From contig OY776510.1 in NCBI GenBank assembly GCA_963675665.1, positions 3,456,001-3,520,000 on the forward strand: a stretch of 64,000 bases of DNA. The letters are read 5' to 3'. Position 1 is the first letter of the stretch, and every line of letters begins with the position of its first letter. The notes beneath the pieces were generated by a model. It made no database searches. It saw only the letters and a program-made list of their open reading frames with translations, and had not been told where the DNA came from. Origin of the DNA: Spirochaetia bacterium (lineage in GTDB: Bacteria; Spirochaetota; Spirochaetia; UBA9216). The position numbers and the translations under genes were made by a program. Below are positions 3,313 through 64,000 of the stretch, piece after piece.

Positions 3313-3888
3313 ATGGCAATGATTATCAGGTCGTTATGTGTTTTCTGCGGGTCAAGCTTTGGTACAGAGACGGTTTACGGGGAGAAAACAAGGGAATTCG
3401 GAAAATATCTGGCTGAAAGAAAGATAACCTTGATATACGGAGGCGGTGCTGCAGGCCTGATGGGCGTTCTTGCTGAGGCTGTACTTGATAACGGGGGCAG
3501 CGTGATTGGGATTATACCCGAAATGATTTATAAAAAGGTAGAACATCTGCCCCTAACTGAAACAATTATTACCGAAGACATGCATTCGAGAAAGAGAATG
3601 ATGTATGACAAATCAGACGCCTTTACAGCGCTTCCCGGCGGCATCGGAACCATTGAGGAAATAAGCGAGATTTATACATGGCAGCAGCTGGGTTATCACC
3701 GAAAAGCCGTGTCCTTGTATAATATAAACAATTTTTATTACAAATTTGCTGAATTCCTCGACAGCGCATGTGATATGGGCTTTATAAAAGAAATTCACCG
3801 AAACCGGCTTATTATTGAGCAGGATGCAGAAAAGCTGATTGAGAAAATCGAGAATTACAGTGAAGAAACAGTTGATAAATGGAGTTGA
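3313..3888 (+). CDS. LOG-family nucleotide phosphoribohydrolase (start may be ATG 3319)
   Basis: CVFCGS, YGGG..GLMG, PGGIGTIEE. Confidence 0.9.
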   Translation: MAMIIRSLCVFCGSSFGTETVYGEKTREFGKYLAERKITLIYGGGAAGLMGVLAEAVLDNGGSVIGIIPEMIYKKVEHLPLTETIITEDMHSRKRMMYDKSDAFTALPGGIGTIEEISEIYTWQQLGYHRKAVSLYNINNFYYKFAEFLDSACDMGFIKEIHRNRLIIEQDAEKLIEKIENYSEETVDKWS

Positions 3889-5566: not shown

Positions 5567-6453
5567 TATTTCTCCTTCGCTGATACATCTTTGACAGTTT
5601 TATCCCATGCATCATATATCAGCTTTTTAATTTCGCTGTTGTTATATTCAGCTGCCGTTTTGCCGGCAGTTATAGCTTTTGTAAAATCTTCATTGTACGG
5701 TATAAGTTCAATGATGCTGACTTTCTCTTTTGCGGCGTATTTTTTCAGTTCATCAGTAAGCTGCAAATTAAGATCAAATTTATTGATTATAAGACCCGCG
5801 CGTATTTTAAACTTTTTTATGAGTTCATGAACCCTTTTAAGATCATGTACCCCTGATTTGGTCGGTTCTGTAACCAGAAGAACGTAATCAGCTCCGGTAA
5901 GTGAGGATACTACTGGACAGCCGATACCGGGAGAACCGTCGATTATAATCATTTCAATTCCAAGTTTATCAGCCGCAGCTCTGGCATTCTTTTTTACTTT
6001 TGCAACAAGTTTGCCGGAATTGTCCGCACCGGGTCTTAATCTGGCGTGAATCATTACGGCCCCGGTTTTTATAGTCGACTCGAAAATATCGCCTACCAGG
6101 GCATCTTTCATAGATATTGCCTGCTCAGGGCATATCCGGGCGCAATATCCGCAGCCTTCGCAGTTCATTCGGTCTATCGAGAACACCTCGTTATCATTGT
6201 TAACCGCACTGAATCTGCAAATATCACCGCATTTCCCGCAGGAAATACATTTTCCGTTATCTATTTCTGCAACTAAACCGCTGTAAAAATTTTCCGATTT
6301 ATTATAGTCTGGTTCAAGCATAAGATGCATGTCGTCGGCGTCGACATCACAATCGCCTACAACAAGATTTTTACTACCTATAACCGCAAACGACGAGGTA
6401 ATTGAAGTTTTACCGGTTCCGCCTTTTCCTGAAATTACAACAACTTCCTTCAT
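5566..6453 (-). CDS. MinD/CobQ-like P-loop ATPase with inserted 2x[4Fe-4S] domain
   Basis: SGKGGTGKT, CxxCxxCxxxC twice, DGSPGIGCP, VTEPT. Confidence 0.9.
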   Translation of the reverse strand: MKEVVVISGKGGTGKTSITSSFAVIGSKNLVVGDCDVDADDMHLMLEPDYNKSENFYSGLVAEIDNGKCISCGKCGDICRFSAVNNDNEVFSIDRMNCEGCGYCARICPEQAISMKDALVGDIFESTIKTGAVMIHARLRPGADNSGKLVAKVKKNARAAADKLGIEMIIIDGSPGIGCPVVSSLTGADYVLLVTEPTKSGVHDLKRVHELIKKFKIRAGLIINKFDLNLQLTDELKKYAAKEKVSIIELIPYNEDFTKAITAGKTAAEYNNSEIKKLIYDAWDKTVKDVSAKEK

Positions 6454-7334
6454 GAATTACGGTTCTCCTGATAGTTTTTGAGATAGTCCAGTATTTTTTT
6501 CAATTCAAAACTGAACGCCGGAATAAATTCATGTATAATTTTGCCCTGTGAATAGATTTCCGCAACCTCGCGCATATTAGGTAATTTTGAAATAATGTCT
6601 ATTCCGTTTTCAAAACAGTATTTTTCTACTTCGTTGTTGCCAATCCCGTACCTGTTTATAACAACTGCAAAATTCCTTCCAATTTCCCTGACGGTATTAA
6701 CGGCTAATTTAAGATCATGCAATCCGAATGGTGTTGGCTCGGTTACAAGGATTATAAAATCGCTGTTTTTGGCAACTTCAATAACCGGGCATGATGTACC
6801 CGGGGGAGAATCCATAATTAACAGCAGGTTTTCATCATTGACAGCGTATTCTTTTTCGATAAAATCAATGCTTTGTGAAATAAGAGGAACGGCCTGTTCC
6901 TGTCCTATATCAAGTCTGCTTTCAATAAATGTAAATTTTTCAGCATCCTGAACTTTTAATTCACCCATTCGTATTTTTTTCATGGGAAGGGCGCCTTCAG
7001 GGCATAATTCGGAACATGCATAACAGCTGTGACATAATTCAGGCAAAATCATTATACTTTTGCCTATTTTTAATACGCTTCCAAAATTGCAGACTTCATC
7101 ACAAAGACCGCAAGAAGAGCATCTGTCTTTTTCCCATTCAGGAACAGATTTAAATTTTTCTTCAAATTTTACAGTTTTGCCTTTTATAAACAATCCTGAA
7201 TTTGGTTCTTCCACATCAAGGTCAGCAAGAACTATTTTTGAATACTTGTTTGTCGTAGATATATAATCGGCGAGGTTAACTGATAATGTTGTTTTACCGG
7301 TTCCGCCTTTTCCGCTTGCAACAGCAACCTTCAT
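6450..7334 (-). CDS. MinD/CobQ-like P-loop ATPase with inserted 2x[4Fe-4S] domain (paralog)
   Basis: MKVAVASGKGGTGKT, DLDVEEPN, two Cys4 motifs, PPGTSCP, VTEPTPFGLHDL. Confidence 0.9.
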   Translation of the reverse strand: MKVAVASGKGGTGKTTLSVNLADYISTTNKYSKIVLADLDVEEPNSGLFIKGKTVKFEEKFKSVPEWEKDRCSSCGLCDEVCNFGSVLKIGKSIMILPELCHSCYACSELCPEGALPMKKIRMGELKVQDAEKFTFIESRLDIGQEQAVPLISQSIDFIEKEYAVNDENLLLIMDSPPGTSCPVIEVAKNSDFIILVTEPTPFGLHDLKLAVNTVREIGRNFAVVINRYGIGNNEVEKYCFENGIDIISKLPNMREVAEIYSQGKIIHEFIPAFSFELKKILDYLKNYQENRNS

Positions 7335-7786
7335 TACCTTCGGCCTCCGTGATACCGGTTGCAGCATCTGCCGTGACCATAACCGCCGGCAACGTCTATA
7401 AGATTTTTGGATCCGCATGCCGGACATTCTGTGTAAATCTTGTTGAAATCAGTTCTGAACATATGCTCGCAACTATTGCATTTGATAATATTTCCACGAA
7501 AATGGATATTTCCGCCGTCGATTTTCAGTTCGGCTCCGTCAATTATAAACTCAGCTACTTTACGCCTTGCTTTTTCAATCAGGCGTGTGAAAGTTGATCT
7601 GGAAATTTCCATCATCCGGGCCGCTTCGGCATGATCCAGGCCTGAATAGTCGGCAAGCCGAACAGCTTCAAACTCGTCAAGACTTAAAGTAATTGTCTTA
7701 AGATTGGTTCTTGCCAAACCGGTCGGTTTGAATGAATTAAAAAGAGGAGGTGAATTAACAATTCTTTCCTTTTCAGGTCTGGGCAT
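7334..7786 (-). CDS. DUF134 HTH DNA-binding protein with C-terminal zinc ribbon
   Basis: MPRP, LDEFEAVRLAD, MEISRSTF, CxxC...CPACGS. Confidence 0.88.
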   Translation of the reverse strand: MPRPEKERIVNSPPLFNSFKPTGLARTNLKTITLSLDEFEAVRLADYSGLDHAEAARMMEISRSTFTRLIEKARRKVAEFIIDGAELKIDGGNIHFRGNIIKCNSCEHMFRTDFNKIYTECPACGSKNLIDVAGGYGHGRCCNRYHGGRR

Positions 7787-10583: not shown

Positions 10584-12565
10584 GTCTGTTTACATCAAAA
10601 ATGAGGCTTCTTTCCGCTGTTGTATTAGAGGAAAAATCTGAAGCAGTAGCCCGTGAGCTTTTAAAACTCGGTCTGCTTGATTTTATCGAGATATCAAAAC
10701 TGTTTGATAAAGACAGCATCAGGCTTAAAAGTAATAATACATCCAATTCTGAAATTTCTGATTTAAGACGAAAACTCGAAACAATCTATCAGCAGGTTGA
10801 ACTGGACTATCCTTACAGGGATATACTCAGTGTTGAAGAGATGACAGAATTAAAACTGTCGGAAACAAGGGATACTATTGAGAAAATATCCGCAGAACTA
10901 CAAAAATTGAGAGATAACCAGAAAAAACTTCACCAGGAAAAACTTAAAATTGAAGAACTGATTGAATATCTCAGCTCTTCAACCGGAAAAAAATCACCGG
11001 TTTCAGGGTTTGTAAACGTACATAAGGGCAAACCCGGACGCGGCGTTTTTGAGGATATGCTGAATCATCTAAAATCCGTGCCTCATTTCGGATCTGATAT
11101 CCCGGATACTGACAATCACATCCTTATATCCCTGAGAAGAGACGAATCTGTTGTTAATGAAGTTTTCAGAAAATATGAATGGATTGAAAATGACGTTCAG
11201 TCCCGCAGCATGCATGACAATGAAATACTTATTGGAAAAATGCATAAAAATGCTGAAAAAATAAATGTTGAACTTAATGAAAATCATTCGGAAATGAAAA
11301 AGATCGTCCTTAAATATAAAGAGAATATTGATATTTTATGGAAAAACCTGCGAATTCACGAACTTTACGGTACAATTAAAAATAATTTTTCACATACTGA
11401 ACGTACCAGTCTGTTTTCCGGCTGGTTGCCTGCTGAAAAATCTGAACAGGTTGAAACTTCCATAAGAAACGCATCGGACAATAATTGCATAATTGAATGG
11501 TCTGAACCTGAACAGTTCAAAAGAGAAAGTGTACCGGTTGAAATCAGGCATTCAAAAGCACTTGCGCCTTTTCAGATGCTTGTTGAGAATTATGCTACTC
11601 CCGAATATGGTACAATTGATCCGACAATATTTGTAGCAGTCGCCTATATGATTATGTTCGGATTAATGTTCGGAGACGCCGGTCAGGGTTTTATTGTAGT
11701 ACTTATTGGTATTTTTGGTAAAATCCTTATGAAAAAAGCATCTGCAGGGATAAAAAAACTGATGCAGCTGTTTATTTACTGCGGTTCGGCATCAATAGTG
11801 TCAGGTGTATTGTTCGGATCATATTTCGGATACAAGCTTTTTCAACCGCTATGGTTTGATTATCACGGGGTGGTTTCAGGCCACAGCACTTTAAGCTCCG
11901 GAAATATTAATGATGTATATGACATTCTGAGAATAACCATATATTTCGGAATTGCTGTAATAGGCACAGGACTTATAATAAACTGGATTAACCTGTATAG
12001 AAAAAGAGACTTTTTCTCTTTTTTTCTGGATAAATCAGGCATTATAGGCGGGTGGTTTTACGGCTGCGGAGTATACACTGCTTTCTTCTTTGTAGCCAAC
12101 AGTTATAAAAAATTACCGCCGGGCAATCTGTTGACTTTGTTTTTCGGTATTCCGGTAATTATAATGTTATTCAAGGCGCCGCTGCATTTTCTGCTGCATG
12201 AAAGAAAACATAAAAGTTTTACTGCATTTACACTGATTGATTTTTTTATGGAATGGGTTGTAGAACTTCTTGAAATATTTTCAGGATATCTTGCAAACAC
12301 GCTTTCTTTTATGCGGGTTGCAGGACTTGGAATTGCACATGTAAGCCTGATGGTCGCTTTCGATACGATAGCCGGTATGACTCACGGAGCAGCGTCGATA
12401 ATTATTCTGGTCTTTGGAAATATACTGGTTATTGCACTTGAAGGGCTGTCGGCAGGAATACAGGCCTTAAGGCTTAATTATTATGAATTTTTCTCAAGGT
12501 ATTTTACCGGTAAAGGTATTGCATATAATCCGGTTTCTCTTCGAAACCGTAAACAGGAGGGCTAA
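10580..12565 (+). CDS. ntpI: V/A-type ATPase subunit I (a)
   Basis: IDPT, FGLMFGDAGQG, NTLSFMRV, IQALRLNYYEFFSRY. Confidence 0.95.
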   Translation: MSLFTSKMRLLSAVVLEEKSEAVARELLKLGLLDFIEISKLFDKDSIRLKSNNTSNSEISDLRRKLETIYQQVELDYPYRDILSVEEMTELKLSETRDTIEKISAELQKLRDNQKKLHQEKLKIEELIEYLSSSTGKKSPVSGFVNVHKGKPGRGVFEDMLNHLKSVPHFGSDIPDTDNHILISLRRDESVVNEVFRKYEWIENDVQSRSMHDNEILIGKMHKNAEKINVELNENHSEMKKIVLKYKENIDILWKNLRIHELYGTIKNNFSHTERTSLFSGWLPAEKSEQVETSIRNASDNNCIIEWSEPEQFKRESVPVEIRHSKALAPFQMLVENYATPEYGTIDPTIFVAVAYMIMFGLMFGDAGQGFIVVLIGIFGKILMKKASAGIKKLMQLFIYCGSASIVSGVLFGSYFGYKLFQPLWFDYHGVVSGHSTLSSGNINDVYDILRITIYFGIAVIGTGLIINWINLYRKRDFFSFFLDKSGIIGGWFYGCGVYTAFFFVANSYKKLPPGNLLTLFFGIPVIIMLFKAPLHFLLHERKHKSFTAFTLIDFFMEWVVELLEIFSGYLANTLSFMRVAGLGIAHVSLMVAFDTIAGMTHGAASIIILVFGNILVIALEGLSAGIQALRLNYYEFFSRYFTGKGIAYNPVSLRNRKQEG

Positions 12566-53898: not shown

Positions 53899-55032
53899 TT
53901 ATGCCATTACATTTTCAAGCTGTTTCAGCTTTTGTATTACAGGAATATGTTGTGGACATGCTTCCTCGCACTGCCCGCATTCTATACAGTTTGAGGCCTT
54001 TTTGGAATCTTCAAAATAGTTCTTATAACTTACTTTGAACTGATCAACAGAATTATAGACAGAAGTATTATTAAGAAAAGTAAGGTTTGCAGGAATATCA
54101 ACTCCGGAAGGACAGGGCATACAGTATTTGCAATTTGTGCACGGTGCAATAATACGTTCTTCGTACATTTTGCGTACATTTGAGATAATTTTATGCTCGT
54201 TGTCGCTTAACCCGCCGGCATCGGCTTTTTCAGCTGATGCAATATTCTCTATTACCTGATGCATATCGCTCATACCGCTTAATACGGTGTTTACTTTTTC
54301 ATTGTCCCAGACAAAACGCAAAGCAATATCTGCAGGGGAACTTGAGTTACCGGCCTTTTGCCATTCATCATTAATATCATCGGGAATATTTTTAAGGAAA
54401 CTGCCTCCTCGAAGCGGTTCCATTATGACTATACCAAGATTACGATCGGCTGCATATTCAAGCCCTTCCAGCCCGGCCTGATACTCAAGATCCATAAAAT
54501 TATACTGTATCTGACAGAAATCCCAGTTGTAACTATCAACAATCTCTTTGAAAACTGGCAAATCATCGTGAAATGAAAAACCTATATACTTTATCTTCCC
54601 CGATTCAAGAGCTTTTTCTATAAAATCAAACAATTCTGCTTTAACAACTTGCGCCCATGTAGCAGCACCAAGCGAATGAATCAGATAAAAATCGATATAC
54701 TCAGTTTTAAGTTTTTTAAGCTGATTATCGAGATAATAATCCATATCTTCTCTTTTCTTTATTAGCCATGCAGGAAGTTTTGTAGCAAGTTTTACCTTAT
54801 TGCGATAACCGTCAGACAAAGCCTTTCCGGTAATAAGTTCACTCTGACCGCCATGATAAGGCCATGCTGTGTCTATATAGTTTACACCGGAATCTATTGC
54901 ATAACGGATCATCTTAATACTTTCAGCCTCGTCAACTGTTTTATCGGAACCGGAAACGAGAGGAAGACGCATGCACCCAAAACCCAAAACAGAAACCATT
55001 TCACCAGTTTTACCAAATTTCCTATATTTCAT
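53899..55032 (-). CDS. Aldo/keto reductase with C-terminal Fe-S domain
   Basis: LGFGCMRLP, YIDTAWPY, IMEPLRGG, CTNCKYCMPCP, CIECGQCEEACP. Confidence 0.92.
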   Translation of the reverse strand: MKYRKFGKTGEMVSVLGFGCMRLPLVSGSDKTVDEAESIKMIRYAIDSGVNYIDTAWPYHGGQSELITGKALSDGYRNKVKLATKLPAWLIKKREDMDYYLDNQLKKLKTEYIDFYLIHSLGAATWAQVVKAELFDFIEKALESGKIKYIGFSFHDDLPVFKEIVDSYNWDFCQIQYNFMDLEYQAGLEGLEYAADRNLGIVIMEPLRGGSFLKNIPDDINDEWQKAGNSSSPADIALRFVWDNEKVNTVLSGMSDMHQVIENIASAEKADAGGLSDNEHKIISNVRKMYEERIIAPCTNCKYCMPCPSGVDIPANLTFLNNTSVYNSVDQFKVSYKNYFEDSKKASNCIECGQCEEACPQHIPVIQKLKQLENVMA

Positions 55033-55157
55033 AAAAATATTATAGCAGGATGAATATTCAGATACCAGTCTGTTATCATCAAACACCTGAATAAAACAGA
55101 TATAGTTATACTACGTATATACAACGCCTATAAATAGTCAGTATTACTCTTTTCTAT

Positions 55158-55193
55158 TTGACAAAAAATAAACATGAGTACATAATTTTGTCA
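55158..55193 (+). promoter_or_regulatory. Putative recombinase promoter with overlapping inverted repeat
   Basis: TTGACA(55158-63)-17 bp-CATAAT(55181-86); tgacaaaa(55159-66)/ttttgtca(55186-93). Confidence 0.55.
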
Positions 55194-55200
55194 TTAAAAG

Positions 55201-56265
55201 ATGAATATAAAAATAACTTTAAAAAATGATGATTTAATTGAACTCACCTGTCCATATAATACAGAATTAATATCTGTAGTTAAAAAAATACCGGGAAGAA
55301 GGTGGCATCCGGACAGGAAGCTTTGGACATATCCTAATAAAGATAAAAATACCCAATACCTGCTTGAATATTTATATAAAACAGGCTCTTCTTATTACGA
55401 CAAACAGAAAAATCTGCAAAAGAACACTAATATAATTACACCTCTTGAAAAAACTGTAAGATATTTGAGACTGAAAGAATACAGCCCCAAAACAATCTAC
55501 ACCTATAAAAAACATATAAACTGGTTTTTCCGGAGAACCGGTTTGGAGCCGAAGGATGTCCGTACCGAAGATATAATTTTATATCTTGAAAAAATCAAAA
55601 ATGTTGCCGGATGCTCCAGAACTTATGCTGTTCAATGCATAAGCGCTCTGAAATGTTTTTACAGCCGGGGATTTGATTCGTGGTTCAATCCGGCTGACAA
55701 TATTCCGCTGCCTAAGAAAGATCATAAGTTTCCGGATATTCTTTCAAGAAAAGAAATCTCGGATATACTGGAAATAACCGCTAATATTAAACACAAGTTT
55801 TTAATATTATTGATCTATTCCGCCGGCCTGAGGGTAAGCGAAGCTGTCAATTTAAAAATAAACGATCTGGATTTTGACAGAAAAATGATTCATATCAGAT
55901 CAGGAAAAGGTAAAAAAGACAGGTATGTAATGTTATCGGAAAAAGCTGTAAAACTATATTTAGATTACAATAAGCAGGTAATGTTACAAAACTGGCTCTT
56001 CCCAGGTCAGGATTATAACTCTCATTTAAGCATACGATCAGCACAATCAGTATTTATCAGAGCAACTGAAAAAACTGAAATACAAAAAAAAGTCAGCATA
56101 CATTCATTACGTCATGCATTTGCTACACATCTACTTGAAGACGGTGTAGATTTAAGATACATACAGGAGCTTCTGGGGCATAAAAGCAGTAAAACAACAG
56201 AAATATATACCCATGTAACAAAAGTAAGTATAAACCGCCTGAAAAGCCCTATAGACAGATGGTAA
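55201..56265 (+). CDS. Tyrosine recombinase heading the cassette array; HARP-like N-terminus, SAM-like domain, no IntI-specific insertion
   Basis: GLRVSE, GKGKKDR, HSLRH, LLGH, TEIYTH catalytic set intact; PYNTELISVVKKIPGRRWHPDRKLW N-terminus. Confidence 0.9.
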   Translation: MNIKITLKNDDLIELTCPYNTELISVVKKIPGRRWHPDRKLWTYPNKDKNTQYLLEYLYKTGSSYYDKQKNLQKNTNIITPLEKTVRYLRLKEYSPKTIYTYKKHINWFFRRTGLEPKDVRTEDIILYLEKIKNVAGCSRTYAVQCISALKCFYSRGFDSWFNPADNIPLPKKDHKFPDILSRKEISDILEITANIKHKFLILLIYSAGLRVSEAVNLKINDLDFDRKMIHIRSGKGKKDRYVMLSEKAVKLYLDYNKQVMLQNWLFPGQDYNSHLSIRSAQSVFIRATEKTEIQKKVSIHSLRHAFATHLLEDGVDLRYIQELLGHKSSKTTEIYTHVTKVSINRLKSPIDRW

Positions 56266-56280
56266 CCAAAATTTTGAAGG

Positions 56281-56321
56281 GTTATATGCATGTTATACAT
56301 GAAGATAAATTGAAGTTGAGG
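56281..56321 (+). other. Putative attI site
   Basis: AGATAAA-TTGAA-GTTGAGG (56303-56321) has attI L-5bp-R spacing; GTTATAT/GTTATAC direct repeats at 56281/56292; gttgaggcga..tagc mirrors the end of cassette 1 (gctacatcgcctaac). Confidence 0.55.
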
Positions 56322-56357
56322 CGAAATAGCGAAATAAATAAAAATTGAGTTGGTTTA

Positions 56358-56675
56358 ATGAAAAAATATACAGGACATATTCCACCTTGTGGGATCTTTT
56401 GTGGAAGCTGTCCAAAATATAAAATTGATTGTGAAGGAGCAGAACATCATTGTAGTAGAGAAAATTGGGAAATGATTTATACATGTTGTGTTGAAAAAAA
56501 GAAATATAAATTTTGTTATGAATGTTATGACTATCCATGTTCATATTTCCACAATTTTTCAAAATCATGGCTTACTATTACAGACTCTAAAGATAATATT
56601 ATGGACAATCAAGTATTTATTAAAAATGATGGTCCTGAATATTTTTTGAAGAAAATGAATGAGAGGCTCAAATAA
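56358..56675 (+). CDS. Cassette 1: DUF3795-like Cys-rich protein
   Basis: PCGIFCGSCP, IYTCC..K...FCYEC..YPC. Confidence 0.78.
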   Translation: MKKYTGHIPPCGIFCGSCPKYKIDCEGAEHHCSRENWEMIYTCCVEKKKYKFCYECYDYPCSYFHNFSKSWLTITDSKDNIMDNQVFIKNDGPEYFLKKMNERLK

Positions 56676-56688
56676 TATATGCTACATC

Positions 56689-56786
56689 GCCTAACAAGCG
56701 AATATGAGGCTACGGTGACAAGCACCTTCGCCCAAATAAACCTCCCATTCGGTCGGTTTACTTCTCATATTCGCAGGACGTTAGAT
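56689..56786 (+). repeat. attC-like site 1 (98 bp)
   Basis: GCCTAAC-aa-gcgaatatgag...ctcatattcgc-aggac-GTTAGAT. Confidence 0.85.
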
Positions 56787-56856
56787 TGCAATTTCTGTCC
56801 TGGTTGGGATTATTTAAGGAAGAGCCCGCCTTCCGTGGCGGGCATGGAGATAAGAA

Positions 56857-57921
56857 ATGAATAATAAAGTATTATATTATCCAAGTATAGAATTTTATGA
56901 TGTTAGTTGGGTTAAAGCATCTCTATGTATTTGGGACAAAGTTTATAGAATTGTGCCTTCAACTTATATTCCCAATGATTGTTTAGAAATAGAAACATTT
57001 ATTAATCATGGACTAGTTGATAATATTAGTATTGAACAAAATGATTTATCAGAAACAGCTGATAATTTTATCGATTTTATTGAAAAAATACCAGGATTAC
57101 CTGCTGGCATTGAAGGATATGAAAAGATCAATTTGCACAAAGAAAAAGTAGATGATCGTATTCTGCCCATATTAGAAGCGATATCAGACAAATTTGAATT
57201 AGAATCATGGATACCTCTATCAAGACCGATAGTAAACGCTTACATGCTTTTTTTTGCAGAAACTATTTCAAGAAGAAGAAAAATGCCAAAGATTACTGAT
57301 AATGTCGACATGTATACAATAATGCATTATTTTATGGCAGATGGTAATATTGATGAATCAATAGGTTCACATGAACATAAAGAATATAGCATTAATCTTG
57401 TATTAGAAAATATTATACCAGCAGATATTAATACCGTATCACCTGAGATTATACTTAATTTCAGAGAAGCAACAGAAGATATTAGAGACACTTTTAGAAA
57501 CTATGTATATAATTTGATTGATGAAATAAAGTCTATTGAAAGTGAATCTTATGCAAAAGAAATAATAACTGATAGTATTTCTGATATTTCTAAAAATAAT
57601 TCATCGCAAAAAAGAGTTATTAAAGAATTAGGTATGAATTTCACTACATCATTTCTTTCAATAGGTATACCTACTACAATTTCGGCAATTGCACTTTTTT
57701 CAAATACAAATAATATATTTTCCATAAACGAAATAATGGGTTCAGTTTTCATTGGAGCAGTTGCGTCTATTGCAGATACAGTCCGCTCAAGAAGAAAAGA
57801 TTGGAGTTCAGAGGAATCACTTTTTATGCATGAATTAGATAGAAGATTTGATACTTATAGGAATTTCAGGCCAACAACTAATCGACATTTTAATATTTTA
57901 GAAGAATATATTAATGATTAA
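56857..57921 (+). CDS. Cassette 2 gene 1: DUF6236-like protein of unknown function
   Basis: LYYPSI...WVKASLCIWDKVYRIVP N-terminus; hydrophobic segments near C-terminus. Confidence 0.6.
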   Translation: MNNKVLYYPSIEFYDVSWVKASLCIWDKVYRIVPSTYIPNDCLEIETFINHGLVDNISIEQNDLSETADNFIDFIEKIPGLPAGIEGYEKINLHKEKVDDRILPILEAISDKFELESWIPLSRPIVNAYMLFFAETISRRRKMPKITDNVDMYTIMHYFMADGNIDESIGSHEHKEYSINLVLENIIPADINTVSPEIILNFREATEDIRDTFRNYVYNLIDEIKSIESESYAKEIITDSISDISKNNSSQKRVIKELGMNFTTSFLSIGIPTTISAIALFSNTNNIFSINEIMGSVFIGAVASIADTVRSRRKDWSSEESLFMHELDRRFDTYRNFRPTTNRHFNILEEYIND

Positions 57922-57952
57922 TAAAGTAAATAAAACTTAAAAGGAGCATAGC

Positions 57953-59515
57953 ATGTCAGAAAAACTAATTCTAGATGCATTAATTACAAGAGAAGATTTT
58001 GAAATCTCTGACGAATTAGATATACCCACAACAGATATGAAAGATACTTTGTCAATTCAAGATTTAGAATATAATTCTTTTTTCTATCGTGCATTAAGAA
58101 AGCCTGATTTTCAAAGAGAGACTAGTGATTGGACTATTGAAAAAACATTTCAATTTATTGAAAGTTTTATTAATGGAGATTTAATACCTGCAGTTATTTT
58201 GTGGAAAAATAGTTCAGGTTTAATATTTGTAATAGATGGTTCTCATCGAATCAGCGCTTTATCTTCATGGATAAATAACGACTATGGGGATGGTCGTTAT
58301 TCAATAGAATTTTATAATAATCAAATTTCAAACCAACAGAAAAAACAAGCCCAAACAGCAAGAACAATAATTGATGCTACAATAGGTTCATATGATTCAT
58401 ATAAAAATATTGATACAAATCTAAAAGAAGAAAATTTAACGAAATATAAAAAGGCGATGCAGTTAGGTTCTACAGCTATTCAAATTCAATGGGTAAAAGG
58501 TGATTCTAAAAAAGCAGAGGAGTCATTTTTTAAGATAAATGAAAAAGCTTCTCCAATTGATAATACTGAAAAGAAGATTATTAAAAATAGAAACAAACCA
58601 ATTGGGATAGCTGCAAGAGCAATCATGAGAAGTGGTAGTGGATATAGATATTGGTCCAAATTTGATAATAAAAGAAAAAATGAAGTTGAGCAGCTTGCAA
58701 AAGACATAAATGATATGCTTTTCTTACCAGAATATACAACCCCTATTAAAAGTTTAGATTTACCGATTGGCGGAAAGATCTTATCGAATAAAGGTTTAGC
58801 ACTAGTTCATGATACAATAATGATATGTAATAATTTAAATGAAAAAGAATTAGAGAGAATAGTGGATGACAATGATGGGATAAATACTGTTAAATACTTA
58901 AAACGAACAAAAAGACTTTTATTGAGGATTAATAGTCAACATCCAGGCTCTTTAGGATTACATCCAGTTATATATTTTTATTCAATACGTGGTGTTCATA
59001 AAGTAGCCTCATATTATGGAATACTTGATTTTATTAATTATATAGAAGAAACGAATAGGTACAACGATTTTATAGAAATACGCGAGAAGTTTGAAAGAAT
59101 CTTATTAGATTATGAATTCCTGATACAACAAATAGTACGTCATGATAGGCAATCTATAAATGGATATAAAAATATTAAGGAATATTATTCTTTAATTATG
59201 GACTATTTATTACAAGGTAAAGAGATTGAGGAAGTAATTAAAATGATTCTTGATACTAAGAAGTTTTCATATCTTTCTATTGCAATTACTAAAATGGAAG
59301 AAACTAAAGCTAAAAAATTCTCAAGAGATAAAAAATCGATAATTTTTATCAAGGAAGGTTTAAAAACAATTCCTAAATGTGGTATTTGTGGCGGGGCGTT
59401 ACATTCAAAATCGATATCAATTGATCATATAGAAAGAAAACAGGATGGTGGAATTTCAATGATAGATAATGGCCAATTATCACATCCATATTGTAATACA
59501 ACATATAAAAATTGA
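57953..59515 (+). CDS. Cassette 2 gene 2: DUF262 (GmrSD/ParB-like) plus C-terminal HNH nuclease
   Basis: PDFQRE..W, IPAVILW, VIDGSHR, FFKIN; CGICG...IDHIERKQDGG...NGQLSHPYCN. Confidence 0.82.
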   Translation: MSEKLILDALITREDFEISDELDIPTTDMKDTLSIQDLEYNSFFYRALRKPDFQRETSDWTIEKTFQFIESFINGDLIPAVILWKNSSGLIFVIDGSHRISALSSWINNDYGDGRYSIEFYNNQISNQQKKQAQTARTIIDATIGSYDSYKNIDTNLKEENLTKYKKAMQLGSTAIQIQWVKGDSKKAEESFFKINEKASPIDNTEKKIIKNRNKPIGIAARAIMRSGSGYRYWSKFDNKRKNEVEQLAKDINDMLFLPEYTTPIKSLDLPIGGKILSNKGLALVHDTIMICNNLNEKELERIVDDNDGINTVKYLKRTKRLLLRINSQHPGSLGLHPVIYFYSIRGVHKVASYYGILDFINYIEETNRYNDFIEIREKFERILLDYEFLIQQIVRHDRQSINGYKNIKEYYSLIMDYLLQGKEIEEVIKMILDTKKFSYLSIAITKMEETKAKKFSRDKKSIIFIKEGLKTIPKCGICGGALHSKSISIDHIERKQDGGISMIDNGQLSHPYCNTTYKN

Positions 59516-59658
59516 TAATTAATAAAAAATGTATTGGAATCATGAATTATCTACATGATTAATTTGAAAAGGAGTTAAGCATATAGAAAATGATTATAGG
59601 GTCAAATACATCCATGTATTTGACAATTAAGTATTAAAGCAACCATGAAAGAAACGGC

Positions 59659-59806
59659 ATCTAACAAGCAAATATGTAGCTCCGGCCATTCGGCCTGCGC
59701 CCAAATTGAAGCTAACGGAGAAGCGGAGCAGGACAGTCGGGTTTGCTCATTGACAAAACACTCCTTTGGCGGCGCTTCAACTTTACATATTCGCGGAACG
59801 TTATGT
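59659..59806 (+). repeat. attC-like site 2 (148 bp)
   Basis: ATCTAAC-aa-gcaaatatgta...tacatattcgc-ggaac-GTTATGT; internal ttgaagc/gcttcaa pairing. Confidence 0.85.
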
Positions 59807-59955
59807 GCAATTACCCCGCCCCTTTTTTGGGAGAAGAGATTGTATATAGGCAAACTGGCATCCGTGCCAGTTTGGAAATGTATAAACACACATCGCATCG
59901 CATAAAAAGGTGAGATTATAGAATTAAAATTTATTAGTATGCATAACAAGGAAGC

Positions 59956-60837
59956 ATGATAATGGAATGGTCTGAAAGAATGAATATGGCAATCGATTAT
60001 ATTGAAGATAATATTAAAAATGAGATACTGATTTCAGAAGTAGCAAATATAGCCAATTGTTCATCATTTCATTTTCAGCGAATGTTTTATGCAATCATTG
60101 GGATTACGCCTGCTGAATATATCAGACGACGAAGATTGACTTTAGCAGCCTCTGATCTCGCTGCTGGGAATGAAAAAGTCATTGATATTGCTCTGAAATA
60201 TGGTTATGAATCACCAAATGCGTTTACTAGAGCATTCCGGAATATGCATGGTATTAATCCACGAGAAGTGCGCAGCTCAGAGGTTAAATTATCGGCATAT
60301 AATCGTGTTTCTTTTCATATCGAAATCAAAGGAGGAAATGATATGGATTATAAAATAGTCGAAAAACCGTCTTTTGAATTGGTAGGGAAGAGTAAAAACT
60401 TTACACATGAAAACTTTTTTAAAGAAGGCCCTAAATTCTGGAAAGAATACGTATGTACAGATGAATACCAAGAGCTTTGGAATTTGACAAATGGTAGATG
60501 GGGAGAGGTGACTGATTCCCCTCTGATGTCTGTCTATTTGCCTAGTGAAAAAAATGATGAATCATTTATTGATATTCTTGGTGTTGAAAAGTCAGATAGT
60601 TTTAATAATCATAAATTTGAACTATTTCAGATACCAGCTGCTACCTATGCAGAATTTAATTGTACTTATCAGACTTCTGCAAAAATGAATAAATTTATTT
60701 ACGGTGAATGGCTTCCTTCAACCGGTTATGAAAGGGATACTCAAAAAGCTGATATTGCAGCTTATTTCCCAGTAGCTTTTATGTCAACAAAAGGGATGGG
60801 GGTACGATGGTGGATACCAGTGGTTAAGAGAAAGTGA
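59956..60837 (+). CDS. Cassette 3: AraC-family regulator with GyrI-like effector domain
   Basis: AIDYIEDN, FHFQRMF, YIRRRRLTLAA, YGYESPNAFTRAF; C-terminal YAEF..EWLP. Confidence 0.92.
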   Translation: MIMEWSERMNMAIDYIEDNIKNEILISEVANIANCSSFHFQRMFYAIIGITPAEYIRRRRLTLAASDLAAGNEKVIDIALKYGYESPNAFTRAFRNMHGINPREVRSSEVKLSAYNRVSFHIEIKGGNDMDYKIVEKPSFELVGKSKNFTHENFFKEGPKFWKEYVCTDEYQELWNLTNGRWGEVTDSPLMSVYLPSEKNDESFIDILGVEKSDSFNNHKFELFQIPAATYAEFNCTYQTSAKMNKFIYGEWLPSTGYERDTQKADIAAYFPVAFMSTKGMGVRWWIPVVKRK

Positions 60838-60909
60838 AAGAGATTTCAAGCAAAACATCGTGTTTTGCTTGAAGAATTCTCTTAAGAAAGACCGGGGCGG
60901 GGAAACTGC

Positions 60910-61001
60910 ATCTAACAAGGGTTACACGCTCCGGCCATTCGGCCTGCGGGCTGCGCCACATTCGGCTGCGCCGAACGTCGTGTAACCCTGGAACGTTATA
61001 C
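60910..61001 (+). repeat. attC-like site 3 (92 bp)
   Basis: ATCTAAC-aa-gggttacacg...cgtgtaaccc-tggaac-GTTATAC. Confidence 0.88.
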
Positions 61002-61079
61002 AAAATGTTCCCGCTAAGAGGAAGACGCCCGGACCTCCGGCCGACGGGCTAAAAGAGAGTTTAAGATTAAGGAATCAAG

Positions 61080-61859
61080 ATGGAAAAAGAGTTTACCGGA
61101 AATGAAATTGGATTAAATGGAGAAGCTCAAATAAAGATAGCTATCAAAACTATCTCTGATCTTGGTGGGAAAGCAGAAATGAAGGATTTATATTCTGCTT
61201 TAGAGAATGAAATGCGAGGAAAGAAACTCTCCAATCAAGGAAAGGCAAGTTTCAGATTTTTTGTGAATAAGGTCGCTGTAAAAGCAGGATTGATTTATCC
61301 GTATGACAAAAATAATCCGGGGTGGATGTTGACTCCGGCTGGTAAAGAATATCTGAAGAATGAAGAGATTAATGAAATAACAGTAAATACGGATACAAAT
61401 GAAGAAGAGGTAACTTTATCTAATTCGGCAAGAGGTTTAGCTTTTGAATTATACGCTCATGATTTTCTAAAGACATTATATCCAAGTTTTGTGTGGCATC
61501 ATCAGGGGCTTTATAAAACAACTGAAAGAGGTTTGGATTTTATAGGAGATAAACTTGGGGATCAAAATTCAGATGTTCGAACCATTGGTGTTCAGGTTAA
61601 GTTTCATAAAGAGAAAAATTCGCCAACTCAGATTGAATGGTTAAAATTTCTATCTGGTTGTTTTGCGCGCAGAGTAGATTTAGCAATATTTATCACAACA
61701 GGTAGATTGTCGAGTGCTCAATATCGAGAGGCGAGGGAATCAAATGTTATAGTTATTCAAGGAAAGGATGAGATAACAAGGATTGCAAAACAGAATAATT
61801 TAAAGAAGTTTGATTTATTTGGAAGTGAAGAGGAAGGAGAGGCTTCAGAAGAAGGATGA
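61080..61859 (+). CDS. Cassette 4: Mrr-like restriction endonuclease with N-terminal winged helix
   Basis: LGGKA...GWMLTPAGKEYL; FE..., ERGLD, VQVK, IFITTG. Confidence 0.8.
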   Translation: MEKEFTGNEIGLNGEAQIKIAIKTISDLGGKAEMKDLYSALENEMRGKKLSNQGKASFRFFVNKVAVKAGLIYPYDKNNPGWMLTPAGKEYLKNEEINEITVNTDTNEEEVTLSNSARGLAFELYAHDFLKTLYPSFVWHHQGLYKTTERGLDFIGDKLGDQNSDVRTIGVQVKFHKEKNSPTQIEWLKFLSGCFARRVDLAIFITTGRLSSAQYREARESNVIVIQGKDEITRIAKQNNLKKFDLFGSEEEGEASEEG

Positions 61860-61921
61860 AGAGTTAAGATGTTCAAGCCTTGACTCCGCCGTGCGGCTTG
61901 AACGAAGAGCGGGAACACTTC

Positions 61922-62013
61922 GTATAACAAGGGTTACACGCTCCGGCAATTCGGCCTGCGGGCTGCGCCACATTCGGTTGCGCCGAACGTCGTGTAACCC
62001 TGGAACGTTAGCT
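61922..62013 (+). repeat. attC-like site 4 (92 bp, near-identical to site 3)
   Basis: GTATAAC-aa-gggttacacg...cgtgtaaccc-tggaac-GTTAGCT. Confidence 0.88.
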
Positions 62014-62105
62014 GAAATGCCCCGCTAAGAGGAGAACGCCCGGACCTCCGGCCGACGGGCTAAACTGAATAGGAAATTAATAATAAATTAAAATATGGAG
62101 TTAGT

Positions 62106-62954
62106 ATGAAGAAGTTATCACTAGTATTTGTATTTCTAATAGCTGTGAGTAGTTTATATGCAGAGGATATAGCTTTAATTGAAGATAATGTGCTTGATTT
62201 ATTTAATAGTTACAATCCTCAATATAAAACAATTGGTCCAAAAATCTTGAATATCCCTGAAGGGCAAATTGATTTTTACAAAATGAAAATAGATACTGAT
62301 GAAAGTGATCTAAAATTCTTAGTAATTAAAGATAAGTACATTATAGGGGTCTTGCAAAATGTTAATGGTGAAGATCAACTTTTAATTGATGCAAATGGTG
62401 ATAATTTATTAGATTATTATTCTCAAGAATTAACAATACCTTATTGGGTTGTAGCATCAGAGTGTAATAATCACAGTAATAATGAATATAATTTGGATAT
62501 TTATTTTGATGAAGCTATTGAGATTTTTAATGGAGAGGTGAACCCATATTCATCCGGTTTGCATTATCAGTTTACGCAAAAATTATTAGTTTCAGTTTCA
62601 GCACCGGAAACTCCTAATCGAGATATAATTTACGCTTTATATGATTATTACAATCATGGCGACCAATATCCATGGGTTGCTTTACAAATAATTAATTATA
62701 TAAGCAAGACTACTTACGATAGATATAAAAAGGATAATCTATTATTTTACTTACATACTATGGAATCCTTAATTAATTTTGGATATTCAGATAGAGCGAT
62801 ACCATTGATGGAAGAGTTAGTAAAGAAATACCCAGAATTTATTCCAGGGTTAGTGTATAGATGGCAATTAGAAAATGATGCTTCGAAAAAGGAGAAATAT
62901 TATAAAGATCTAAAAACCAATTATCCAAATCATTGGATAGTGAAATTAATTTAA
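62106..62954 (+). CDS. Cassette 5: secreted protein of unknown function, possible Ca-binding loop and TPR-like C-terminus
   Basis: Signal peptide MKKLSLVFVFLIAVSSLYA; DANGDNLLD; helical C-terminus. Confidence 0.7.
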   Translation: MKKLSLVFVFLIAVSSLYAEDIALIEDNVLDLFNSYNPQYKTIGPKILNIPEGQIDFYKMKIDTDESDLKFLVIKDKYIIGVLQNVNGEDQLLIDANGDNLLDYYSQELTIPYWVVASECNNHSNNEYNLDIYFDEAIEIFNGEVNPYSSGLHYQFTQKLLVSVSAPETPNRDIIYALYDYYNHGDQYPWVALQIINYISKTTYDRYKKDNLLFYLHTMESLINFGYSDRAIPLMEELVKKYPEFIPGLVYRWQLENDASKKEKYYKDLKTNYPNHWIVKLI

Positions 62955-63034
62955 TGAAATATTATAGATTTGAAAACTTTGGTAGCCAGTCCTTGACTCC
63001 GTCGCACGGACTGGTTTAAGAGCGGGGACACTTC

Positions 63035-63342
63035 AGCTAACAAGGGAATATAAGCAGCGCCCATTCGGGCTTGGCCTTCGGCACATTTTTATTTTTCTGA
63101 ACATAGGCTTTATCATCGGCATTTAACACATGAAATGCAGTAGTCAACACCTTTGACACGGTTCTGGCGGAGACATTCGCTGATCGCTCATTCCAGAACC
63201 GCGCCAACCCTCGAAGACTCGGGACGGTTTCGCTACTGATTTCGTCGTTAAATGCACGGGATTTTTCAGTTTCGGGAAAATGATGGGTGTGATAGAATCA
63301 ATGAGAAAAATAAAAACGTCTTATATTCCCGGGGCGTTATGC
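63035..63342 (+). repeat. attC-like site 5, unusually long (308 bp)
   Basis: AGCTAAC-aa-gggaatataag...cttatattccc-ggggc-GTTATGC; inner pairing acatttttatttttct / agaaaaataaaaacgt. Confidence 0.75.
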
Positions 63343-63457
63343 GACATTCTTGGAGGAAGAAGATAGAAACATTGTTTGGGATGATTTTGATAGTTTTTAG
63401 CATTTTACTCATTAAAAATTATTTTATTTCATATGGAAGGGCTATAAATAAATTCCG

Positions 63458-63466
63458 TGATATAAT
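63458..63466 (+). promoter_or_regulatory. Extended -10 promoter candidate inside cassette 6
   Basis: TG-A-TATAAT about 110 bp upstream of the Rhs-core ORF. Confidence 0.4.
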
Positions 63467-63576
63467 GTTATTTACAGTTTTAAATGCTGTAATTGAATTC
63501 TCAAGCAAGATCAACCAACTTGTTTTTAGGAACTTTACGCAGAAATTTAAGATTGAATTAAAAATAAAGGACGAAC

Positions 63577-64000
63577 ATGAATTCTACAGGCCAATATTAC
63601 TACAATGCCAGATGGTATGACCTAAATCTGGGTAGGTTTACCACAGAAGACCCGATAAGCGACGGCCTAAACTGGTACGCTTACGCTAATAATAATCCGC
63701 TGAGGTTTGTTGATCCGACCGGGTTAATAGATGTTGAATCTGATATAGTTGAAACGGAAACATACGTCGATGTTGATACTGATTCTCTCATGACTGGTGA
63801 TCCTATGGATATCTTTGATGATCCAGAAGTTGCAAAAGCTGATACTTTAGCTCAATTAGAAGATGTAGTAGATGAAACTGTAGAAATGATTTCCTTTACT
63901 ACCACTTTGGGTGGACTTTTGCCAGATGAAGAAGTTTCAACCACATTATTTTTTATTGGTGTAGGGACCGACCTTTATTCTACCCTTGTCTCTGAGGATA
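63577..64000 (+). CDS. Cassette 6: orphan Rhs repeat-associated core plus variable C-terminal domain (3'-truncated by window edge), not in ORF track
   Basis: MNSTGQYYYNARWYDLNLGRFTTEDPISDGLNWYAYANNNPLRFVDPTGL-IDVESD...; AAAGGA upstream; no stop before 64000. Confidence 0.88.
   Translation, partial: MNSTGQYYYNARWYDLNLGRFTTEDPISDGLNWYAYANNNPLRFVDPTGLIDVESDIVETETYVDVDTDSLMTGDPMDIFDDPEVAKADTLAQLEDVVDETVEMISFTTTLGGLLPDEEVSTTLFFIGVGTDLYSTLVSED

Follow-up and report, generated by a model that had tools for sequence, protein, structure and literature searches.

attC-like cassette sites with a one-sided bulge beside an insertion-less relative of integron integrases in a Spirochaetia genome

Recombination of folded, single-stranded attC sites in integrons is held to depend on extrahelical bases that are read by I2, an insertion specific to the integron integrase IntI, and integron finders define the system by that insertion. 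The two strands of a canonical attC site are reported to differ by an unpaired spacer, by the extrahelical bases and by the terminal structure, with the first extra base deciding which strand is used; the spacer has one A-rich and one GC-rich arm, and AAC of the bottom strand is followed by G (PMC2727003). Because I2 recognises the extra bases, second cleavage is described as prevented, and Escudero et al. 2016 present I2 and the extrahelical bases as a case of coevolution that poses a chicken-and-egg paradox, namely which of the two came first (PMC4792948). This work concerns five attC-like sites, s1 to s5, in a 64,000-nucleotide stretch of DNA from Spirochaetia bacterium (the window; C1:3456001-3520000 of a 5.15-Mb single contig, in a genome labelled G000), together with the tyrosine recombinase, here called T2, that is encoded beside them. 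In the explanation that we favour as a whole, and regard as rather probable, these are the attC-type cassette sites of a second integron-like system, run by T2, which lacks the insertion.

Canonical attC sites (class 1 aadA1 and dfrA1, the Vibrio VCR and those of G000 itself) share with the sites described here, designated type-2, the cores RYYYAAC...GTTRRRY, an imperfect palindrome at the 3' end of the cassette and crossover at G|TT. Further likenesses to the canonical sites as described in PMC2727003 are the signs of bottom-strand folding, an A-rich R''-L'' spacer facing a GC-rich R'-L' spacer, and the G after AAC; the variable terminal structure and arrays that start at an attI site beside the recombinase are likewise shared with canonical integrons. 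Where canonical attC sites carry two or three extrahelical bases on the R''-L'' arm, type-2 sites carry none; where the canonical spacer is 5 vs 4-6 nucleotides (nt), the type-2 spacer is 1-2 vs 5, with the extra nucleotides on the opposite arm. The type-2 stem is exactly 11 base pairs (bp), and the recombinase lacks I2 and is co-oriented with its cassettes. Xer/dif, XerA/dif and pdif systems resemble T2 in that its best NCBIfam match is XerA_Arch and in having two binding arms of about 11 bp, and the R box RCATAAC/GTTATGY resembles the inner ends of the dif arms. Unlike type-2 sites, which are 70-320-nt hairpins at cassette ends, dif is a single 28-bp duplex near the terminus with a paired centre of 6-8 bp, and in our tree, built with four bacterial and no archaeal Xer proteins, T2 sits with IntI and away from those four.

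The attP(+) site of CTX-phi is a forked hairpin with an unpaired centre. On that phage XerC and XerD, which also lack I2, are reported to exchange one strand pair between folded single-stranded DNA and a duplex, replication finishing the process (PMC3442271). CTX-phi integration is the nearest mechanistic precedent for an Xer-type enzyme acting on folded single-stranded DNA; unlike T2, it involves a single phage site and host Xer proteins at dif, with no cassette arrays and no dedicated recombinase or attI. The Spirochaete 'reverse-orientation' integrons and the archaeal integrons (Ghaly 2021, 2022) are like the T2 system in phylum, in co-orientation and in having attI immediately downstream of intI (PMC9668308). 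Their IntIs are described as carrying the complete additional domain (PMC9668308, PMC8352920), in contrast to T2, which lacks it and is accompanied by sites of other geometry. The system departs from integrons in features that define them, two of the site (extrahelical bases, a roughly symmetric spacer) and two of the enzyme (the insertion, a score above the family cut-off), and is integron-like in every other respect tested.

The five sites were read directly from the letters, in the order R'' / spacer / 5' arm ... 3' arm / spacer / R' (Table 1). They follow a common plan, YTAAC-A(A)-(11-bp uninterrupted stem)...(stem')-RGRRC-GTTA, with 3' spacers AGGAC (s1), GGAAC (s2, s3 and s4) and GGGGC (s5). 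The spacer is 1-2 nt on one side and 5 nt on the other, next to an 11-bp stem without a bulge; it becomes 2 vs 6 in s3 and s4 when the closing A-T pair is left uncounted. The original prediction, made from the letters alone, had given all five sites the form TAAC-AA-arm...complement-5 or 6 nt-GTTA with arms of 10-11 bp. This observation is confirmed: TAAC at one end and 5 nt-GTTA at the other hold for all five, the left-hand spacer of s3 and s4 being A with the closing A-T pair counted. That the arms pair in register without a bulge, with a single mismatch in s2, was read correctly; every arm is 11 bp long, and at base pair 3 of s2 the top strand has an A.C mismatch, which the bottom strand shows as a G.T wobble. 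YTAAC...GTTA cores are present in 5/5 sites. The full core GTTRRRY is matched by s1 and s4; s2, s3 and s5 have T at its position 5.

Folding with DNA parameters shows no canonical extrahelical-base pattern, in line with the prediction; in s1, s3 and s4 the folded bottom strand has its R box paired and a one-sided bulge of 4-5 nt. Compared with 200 shuffles, bottom-strand z scores were -5.15 (s1), -0.91 (s2), -4.68 (s3) and -3.00 (s4), and top-strand z scores -3.88, +0.36, -3.48 and -1.85 respectively; in all four the bottom strand is 2.7-3.4 kcal/mol more stable than the top. Long-class type-2 sites, to which s5 belongs, enclose a complete canonical-type (type-1) attC in their loop, flanked by a T-rich/A-rich helix. 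This architecture occurs in three genomes: besides s5, it is seen in four sites of the related genome G010 (L019:4524-4840, 5765-6082, 7044-7364 and 11160-11476) and one of G008 (L018:10472-10790). Such a site may be 'bilingual', that is, usable by both recombinases. A search of Rfam 15 over positions 55000-64000 returned only four sub-threshold matches, to unrelated small nucleolar RNA and microRNA families.

Table 1. Coordinates of sites, cassettes and recombinase genes. Positions are those of the window unless prefixed by a contig or locus name; window-equivalent positions continue the same numbering past its end. R1 and R2 are covariance models of type-2 and type-1 sites; ORF, open reading frame; aa, amino acids.
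Feature	Position	Strand	Description
Tyrosine recombinase T2	55201..56265	+	354 aa; directly upstream of cassettes, co-oriented
attI-like region	56266..56320	+	proposed crossover G|TT at 56315|56316
Cassette 1	56316..56780	+	ORF 56358-56675 (DUF3795)
s1, type-2 attC	56689..56786	+	spacer 2 vs 5; R1 54.7 bits
s1 5' half			R'' GCCTAAC 56689-56695 / AA / arm GCGAATATGAG 56698-56708
s1 3' half			arm CTCATATTCGC 56764-56774 / AGGAC / R' GTTAGAT 56780-56786
Cassette 2	56781..59800	+	ORFs 56857-57921 (weak DUF6236 match), 57953-59515 (GmrSD_N/DUF262 + HNH)
s2, type-2 attC, 142-nt class	59659..59806	+	spacer 2 vs 5; R1 54.5 bits
s2 5' half			R'' ATCTAAC 59659-59665 / AA / arm GCAAATATGTA 59668-59678
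s2 3' half			arm TACATATTCGC 59784-59794 / GGAAC / R' GTTATGT 59800-59806
Cassette 3	59801..60995	+	ORF 59956-60837 (AraC helix-turn-helix + Cass2/GyrI-like domain)
s3, type-2 attC, 86-nt class	60910..61001	+	spacer 1 vs 5; R1 115.9 bits
s3 5' half			R'' ATCTAAC 60910-60916 / A / arm AGGGTTACACG 60918-60928
s3 3' half			arm CGTGTAACCCT 60979-60989 / GGAAC / R' GTTATAC 60995-61001
Cassette 4	60996..62007	+	ORF 61080-61859 (Mrr_cat restriction-endonuclease-like)
Cassette 4 hairpins			leader 61027-61049; trailer 61871-61903
s4, type-2 attC, 86-nt class	61922..62013	+	spacer 1 vs 5; R1 109.4 bits
s4 5' half			R'' GTATAAC 61922-61928 / A / arm AGGGTTACACG 61930-61940
s4 3' half			arm CGTGTAACCCT 61991-62001 / GGAAC / R' GTTAGCT 62007-62013
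Cassette 5	62008..63336	+	ORF 62106-62954, no confident family
Cassette 5 hairpins			leader 62038-62060; trailer 62986-63014
s5, type-2 attC, long ~300-320-nt class	63035..63342	+	spacer 2 vs 5; 302 nt
s5 5' half			R'' AGCTAAC 63035-63041 / AA / arm GGGAATATAAG 63044-63054
s5 3' half			arm CTTATATTCCC 63320-63330 / GGGGC / R' GTTATGC 63336-63342
Canonical-type (type-1) attC nested in s5 loop	63114..63260	+	R2 130.9 bits, E = 2e-28; blastn match to type-1 sites
Cassette 6, start	63337..64000, off window end	+	ORF from 63577
s6, next site	window-equivalent 64765-64897
N-domain-bearing IntIs of related Spirochaetes	L108:1252-2445; L109:1252-2436; L110:108-1292	L110: -
374-nt element, copies in canonical array	C1:4428348, 4440406, 4445111, 4512940, 4524203

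T2 scores 220 bits against the NCBIfam model XerA_Arch (NF040815), exactly the curated cut-off, and its distant homologues score 226-243 bits; the name of that model itself reads 'tyrosine recombinase/integron integrase'. The IntI model TIGR02249 is matched in two stretches at 190.8 bits, below its cut-off of 265, and IntI is the nearest family by tree. When T2 is aligned to VchIntIA (2a3v), query residues 262-274 span residues 183-240 of the chain, and in an alignment with four true IntIs T2 lacks two blocks of 31 and 10 aa, about 41 aa corresponding to I2. The IntI insertion is therefore absent from T2, and the recombinase next to the sites is insertion-less as originally predicted. R211, K236, H301, R304, H327 and Y336, which we take to be the tyrosine-recombinase catalytic residues, are invariant in 30/30 aligned homologues, and both these residues and the C-terminal SP.D motif are conserved alike in T2 and IntI. 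The nearest titled relative of T2 is the recombinase of a Spirochaetaceae metagenome-assembled genome.

A quick maximum-likelihood tree of 45 proteins (30 T2, 11 IntI and a small outgroup of 4 bacterial Xer, with no archaeal XerA and with the shared N-domain columns kept) sets T2 plus IntI apart from the Xer proteins with an SH-aLRT support of 100, IntI forming one group (100) and T2 another (89). By this sequence comparison T2 would, tentatively, be the sister of IntI. Residues 1-62 of T2 make up a HARP-like N-terminal domain, a candidate for the HARP / XPB-DRD / UvsW-N fold, which passes the Pfam HARP model (PF07443) narrowly, at 27.5 bits against a cut-off of 25, and which is matched at E <= 0.01 in 15 of 29 T2 homologues. 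The structure model of T2 has a predicted local distance difference test score (pLDDT) of 84.5, and the 62 N-terminal residues (pLDDT 84) are predicted to adopt a beta-beta-alpha-beta-beta-alpha fold. This domain was considered as a substitute for I2 and rejected, since three true IntIs of related Spirochaetes (G012, G022 and G006; 444-458 bits) carry a homologous N-domain and keep the insertion. The IntI of G012, the one of the three with a readable flank, is co-oriented with sites (L131:2413-2544 and 3459-3588) that have a spacer of 5 vs 5 and two extra bases. The N-domain is shared heritage of T2 and IntI, not a replacement for the insertion.

Type-2 geometry recurs throughout six related Spirochaete arrays. 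A scan of these gave 76 sites, from which 4 AT-rich false positives outside the arrays were dropped; 64 sites are unique and 63 analysable, and the geometry holds in 63/63. Spacers fall into the classes (1,5) in 40 of the 63, (2,5) in 7, (1,4) in 4 and others in 12. A bulge occurs on the 5' half of no site and on the 3' half of one, and the first uninterrupted run is exactly 11 bp in 45. The minimum free energy is lower on the bottom strand for 63 of the 64 unique sites (and for 31 of 43 distant sites, described below), and G.T wobbles in the L stem number 23 cells when read on the bottom strand against 1 on the top. The contrast of A-rich and GC-rich spacer arms and the G after AAC are kept in type-2 sites.

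An alignment, A1, of 39 unique short sites from the six arrays, with s1, s3 and s4 among them, was the basis of covariance model R1. The L stem is paired in 92.3% of A1 cells, compared with 27-40% in slid controls, and changes on both sides are seen in 7/11 L-stem pairs and in 14/30 pairs of the whole structure. Covariation is 0.272, against 0.108 for shuffles (0/500 reach the observed value) and 0.023-0.104 for slid controls. The TAAC/GTTA pairs are invariant in 39/39 sites. Modelling the sites anew had been proposed with the original prediction; the resulting model finds s2, which lies outside the training set, at E = 3e-9.

This covariation bears on the reading of T2 as a conventional Xer enzyme that acts on a duplex core at the 3' end of the site, the long palindrome being incidental. 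An example of such a core would be ATAAC-CCCGGGAC-GTTAT, with an 8-bp spacer. Many related sites do have TAAC three pairs into the 3' arm, which makes L' + spacer + R' an AAC-N8-GTT; T2 scores as XerA-like; and removal or bypass of I2 is reported to favour double-strand activity in IntI (PMC4792948, PMC7790495). We nevertheless consider this reading improbable, as compensatory changes extend over the entire stem and into the inner helices, the wobbles are biased to the bottom strand, and the inner TAAC is missing from s1 and s5. Exchange needs identical overlaps, and the putative overlaps differ among sites and from attI, so that the second exchange would be blocked.

Evidence that the sites bound mobile cassettes comes from the arrays of G008 (37 sites) and G010, genomes of the same family as G000. 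Between conserved flanks (identity 94% next to the recombinase and 93% at the far side) the two arrays hold different cassettes, and the breakpoints between the two cassette contents fall at GTTA. In a multi-copy cassette of G008 the class of the downstream site is constant in 7/7 copies and the upstream neighbour varies; the cassette therefore bears its site at its 3' end, as in integrons. The array begins at the attI-like region directly 3' of the recombinase gene, whose core, RGGTTATRYGCA...TGAG|TT, is kept after the stop codon in G000, G003, G008 and G010, and the similarity between G008 and G010 stops at the proposed attI crossover. The letters just beyond the right core of site n can pair with those just beyond the left core of site n+1, both stretches being part of one cassette (cassette 4, TGTTCCCGCT/AGCGGGAACA; cassette 3, CCCCGCCCC/GGGGCGGGG; cassette 5, GTTAGCTGAA/TTCAGCTAAC), and the start of cassette 1, TTGAGGCGA, is likewise complementary to its own 3' end, TCGCCTAAC. 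Complementary ends are as predicted from a circular cassette intermediate. An alternative arrangement with attC at the 5' end of the cassette and crossover at the left core (Model B) was ruled out by the boundaries of shared cassettes.

GC-rich hairpins that lie 3' of ORFs in AT-rich DNA might also be terminators, REP-like (repetitive extragenic palindromic) elements or miniature transposons between genes, and no recombination sites at all. We find this scarcely credible, given that cassette content varies between conserved flanks with breakpoints at GTTA, that the complementarity of core-flanking sequence holds within a cassette and not across neighbours, and that they occur only in arrays next to a single family of recombinases. 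That they are real, T2-linked recombination sites with a one-sided-bulge geometry is held here with high confidence.

Joints found in assembled contigs of sequencing runs were examined and set aside as evidence of either excision or habitat. Sets X9 and X10 probably come from the source sample, and contig set X11 spans all five cassettes without differences. A joint in X9 and X11 that goes back from 63331 to 56788 contains 11 other letters and so differs from a plain s5-by-s1 junction. Other joints, in the marine metagenome X1, connect cassette leaders or the attI side with trailers or different cassettes (for example 56303 to 61004), with sides of only 19-35 nt at a likeness threshold of 90.

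G000 also provides an internal control, since it encodes a canonical IntI (C1:4525383-4526315; 392.3 bits, 47% identical to IntI1). This is a sedentary integron (C1:4417911-4526315; L104, L136-L139). Its array, about 106 kb long, lies upstream of the IntI gene, which is divergent from it, and holds 41 unique type-1 sites with the consensus TAAC-AAGAG-ATTT-G-GAGTAG-T-C...G-CTACTC-AAAT-CGTC-GTTA. These sites have a spacer of 5 vs 4 and an unpaired G and T on the R''-L'' arm; their structure is paired in 96% of cells, with changes on both sides in 20/35 pairs. Run on both site types, a single half-site parser reports one or more extra bases for 40/41 type-1 sites and for 0/63 type-2 sites. As outside controls, the class 1 attC sites of aadA1 and dfrA1 also have extra base(s) on the R''-L'' arm, as judged by eye after the parser could not parse aadA1 and had scored dfrA1 as lacking a bulge.

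The two covariance models separate the arrays in the same way. R1 has no match in the canonical array of G000 or beside the canonical IntIs of G008, G004, G012, G022, G006, G009 and G039, and two matches in the 20 kb beside that of G010. For R2, the type-1 model, the matches next to canonical IntIs number 13 in G008, 13 in G010 and 3 in G012. Its matches in T2 arrays are the copies nested in type-2 sites of the long class (s5 itself, four G010 sites and one G008 site) and one stand-alone site each in G000 (L001:3795-3954, window-equivalent 66795-66954) and G004 (L016:9981-10111). A bulge-tolerant half-site scan beside canonical IntIs at a score of at least 30, a threshold that is too strict, gave no matches; the sites there were found by repeats and by R2. 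Across G000, G008, G010 and G012, IntI-linked arrays have two extra bases and a spacer of 5 vs 4 or 5 vs 5, and T2-linked arrays are bulged and lack the extra base. The original proposal that the missing extrahelical base matches the missing insertion is thereby well supported as a correlation, site type tracking recombinase type closely, if not absolutely, in these four genomes, and it is very likely that geometry co-varies with the absence of the insertion.

Beyond the close relatives, 80 distant loci encode T2 homologues at 34-60% identity. Their titles name the bacterial groups Bacillota, Bacteroidota, Nitrospirota, Ignavibacteriota, Atribacteria and Thermodesulfobacteria and the archaeal groups Altiarchaeota, Micrarchaeota, Undinarchaeales and Methanoperedenaceae. 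R1 gives 49 matches in 23 of the 80 loci, 49/49 on the recombinase's strand and 48/49 downstream of it, in a search that covered both strands and about 10 kb upstream in most loci. Among 45 analysed distant sites, 29 have a 3' spacer 4 nt longer than the 5' spacer, 11 one that is 3 nt longer and 4 one that is 2 nt longer, the remaining site being mis-parsed; the asymmetric geometry is thus present in 44/45, though these counts are biased in that the sites were found with a model built from type-2 geometry. An extrahelical base on the R''-L'' arm is lacking in 63/63 close and 41/45 distant sites. A model-free scan, biased against bulges by its demand for perfect 9-bp arms, finds like spacer classes on a Desulfitobacterium chromosome (10 sites, about one per cassette), on a Ca. 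Altarchaeum contig and on an Ignavibacteriota contig. An IntI above the TIGR02249 cut-off was found in 0/5 genomes checked that have distant T2-linked sites, one of them titled as a complete Desulfitobacterium chromosome.

In a further alternative, the sites are ordinary attC variants used in trans by canonical IntI and T2 has another role or none. It gains from the canonical IntI (392 bits) found in G000 and in all relatives with a close T2 orthologue, from the R boxes TAAC/GTTA common to both site types, from the small number of sites of either type that turn up among the other, and from the reported tolerance of IntI for diverse attC sites (PMC2095811). We give it little weight, because type-2 arrays lie directly 3' of T2, and co-oriented with it, in the distant loci where R1 matched, because no such genome checked had an IntI over the cut-off, because hardly any mixing of the site types occurs within G000, G008 and G010, and because the catalytic residues of T2 are all kept across phyla.

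T2 and canonical systems coexist in these Spirochaetes and share R-box cores and the leader/trailer frames of their cassettes. The occasional sites of the wrong type hint at cassette traffic between the two systems, which may trade cassettes with the help of composite sites such as s5. A strong type-2 site, at 80 bits, lies in the canonical array of G010 (L140:17207-17312). In the canonical array of G000, a 374-nt element that starts with TAAC, ends with GTTA and contains a type-1 inner hairpin (TTCTGG...CCAGAA) is present in five copies, 5-67 kb apart (Table 1). The canonical intI ORF of G000 is 339 aa long, with a 75-aa ORF, terminated by TAG, in front of it (L104:18041-18268); its N-terminus may have been cut off, the ORFs of relatives being 394-449 aa.

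In the T2 system that we favour, each cassette bears its site at the 3' end and, like the integron crossover, that of T2 sites lies at G|TT of the right-hand core. When a tyrosine recombinase sits on an R box, it cuts the arm entering the centre in the 5'-to-3' direction; with crossover at R', the folded substrate would therefore be the bottom strand. We infer that this single-stranded hairpin is the substrate and T2 the catalyst. The predicted fold reads 5'-YTAAC / G-TYCY bulge (4-5 nt, 0-2 opposite) / 11-bp stem / three-way junction or simple loop / stem' / T / GTTAR-3'. On the arm that would be cleaved, the distance from core to stem is 6 nt (C plus GTYCY), which resembles the central region of Xer-type sites, and the other arm is cut to about 2 nt. 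The one-sided bulge would pre-bend the hairpin, and the bend would mark the active strand and the active bound monomer and block a second strand exchange. The bulge alone would then do the job that spacer, extrahelical bases and I2 do together in canonical integrons.

As a strand selector the bulge is a tentative proposal, drawn by analogy. Its plausibility comes from VCR sites with all extra bases deleted, in which the unpaired spacer alone is reported to keep the bottom-strand polarity and inversion of the spacer then inverts it (Bouvier 2009, PMC2727003). The main rival within this system is that it works as proposed and the bulge gives only flexibility, strand and subunit choice being set otherwise; the candidates are a conserved AAC[G/T]TC motif on the inner side of the 3' arm, the near-invariant T-A/A-T steps at pairs 6-7, the recurrent T.G wobble at pair 5 and the junction after exactly 11 bp. 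Stem positions G18, T21, A22, T81 and A82 of A1 are indeed invariant or nearly so, an ACGTC/ACTTC block is conserved before the 3' arm, and position 12 is unpaired or wobbled in 66/68 sites. The wobble at pair 5, C.A on the top strand and T.G on the bottom (A1 columns 21/98), recurs in 25/68 unique type-2 sites. Spacer orientation alone did not decide the strand in VCR sites that kept their extra bases (PMC2727003). Even so, stem sequence varies widely among phyla while the 3-4-nt asymmetry is kept in 44/45 distant sites, s1, s3, s4 and s5 have no stem wobble, and inverting the spacer of VCR sites without extra bases did invert polarity, as cited above; this version of the system is accordingly judged rather unlikely. 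The pair at stem position 5 sits approximately where canonical sites have their first extra base, for example in the L018 sites and in s7 (window-equivalent 65689-65775).

Several observations weigh against the favoured explanation or its parts. The folding energy of s2 taken alone is no better than that of shuffles, and no clean junction was seen when assembled contigs of sequencing runs were searched for traces of excision. The sites are kin sequences, and counts over them are not independent; the biases of the model-based and model-free searches of distant loci have been given above. A single extra base is present on the 5' half, after 6 pairs, in 4/45 distant sites, so its absence is not universal, and the C.A/T.G pair at stem position 5 could be a recognition mark in itself. 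The analogy with the canonical spacer is inexact, in that the bottom strand carries its extra nucleotides on the 5' arm in type-2 sites and on the 3' arm in canonical ones. Segregation of the site types is not absolute either, with 2 bulged sites in the canonical array of G010 and 1-2 canonical-type sites in T2-type arrays, and every Spirochaete genome with a closer T2 orthologue also has a canonical IntI. Given this co-occurrence and the occasional mixing of site types, canonical IntI may act on type-2 sites as well.

The literature searched, which left the supplements of the Spirochaete and archaeal integron papers outside, holds no description of insertion-less integron recombinases with a site geometry of their own. 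T2 arrays may form a sister lineage of integrons in Bacteria and Archaea that recombines cassettes through folded hairpins without I2 and without extrahelical bases, a suggestion that we put forward with reserve. If it is true, the T2 lineage would supply the 'functional intermediary form' that the paradox of Escudero et al. 2016 calls for. A natural family of attC-like hairpins without extra bases, tied to the nearest relatives of IntI, which lack I2, makes that paradox directly testable, and it presents another recognition geometry of a simpler kind, in which an 11-bp stem comes after a one-sided bulge. The finding also implies cassette arrays in lineages that the searched literature omits as integron hosts, among them Bacillota such as Desulfitobacterium, DPANN archaea, Nitrospirota and Ignavibacteriota, where surveys would presumably record them as integrase-less attC clusters at best. 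Engineering would gain useful new parts in a smaller recombinase and in a structure-specific site that does without flipped bases.

The array in G000 runs past the end of the window to window-equivalent 73956 and contains at least 12 sites, all on the + strand, as found by the geometry scan and R1 together. R1 marks 14 places in the 5.15-Mb genome, 11 in the array (all +) and 3 in one other cluster; s5, missed by R1 and found by the geometry scan, brings the array to 12. These sites span 84-302 nt and lie at cassette ends. The ORF of cassette 6, which starts at 63577 and runs off the window, shows, by eye, an RHS-type C-terminal core motif (YDxxGRF-like). Cargo at 56857-59515, 61080-61859 and 63577-64000 looks defence- or conflict-related (DUF262/GmrSD_N+HNH with a partner ORF, an Mrr_cat nuclease and the RHS-type ORF). 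In cassettes 4 and 5 a leader conserved as ..CCCGCTAAGAGGA..GCCCGGACCTCCGGCCGACGGGC comes after the attC (61010-61049 and 62021-62060). Upstream of the attC, cassettes of both the T2 and the canonical array, many of them in the latter, have a trailer hairpin; its conserved loop reads TTGACTCCG(Y)CG(Y)RC. The second small type-2 cluster, about 390 kb from the array, lies on the - strand at C1:3906571-3919288 (L003) and has three sites, within C1:3906571-3919112, one of them adjoined by a type-1 site.

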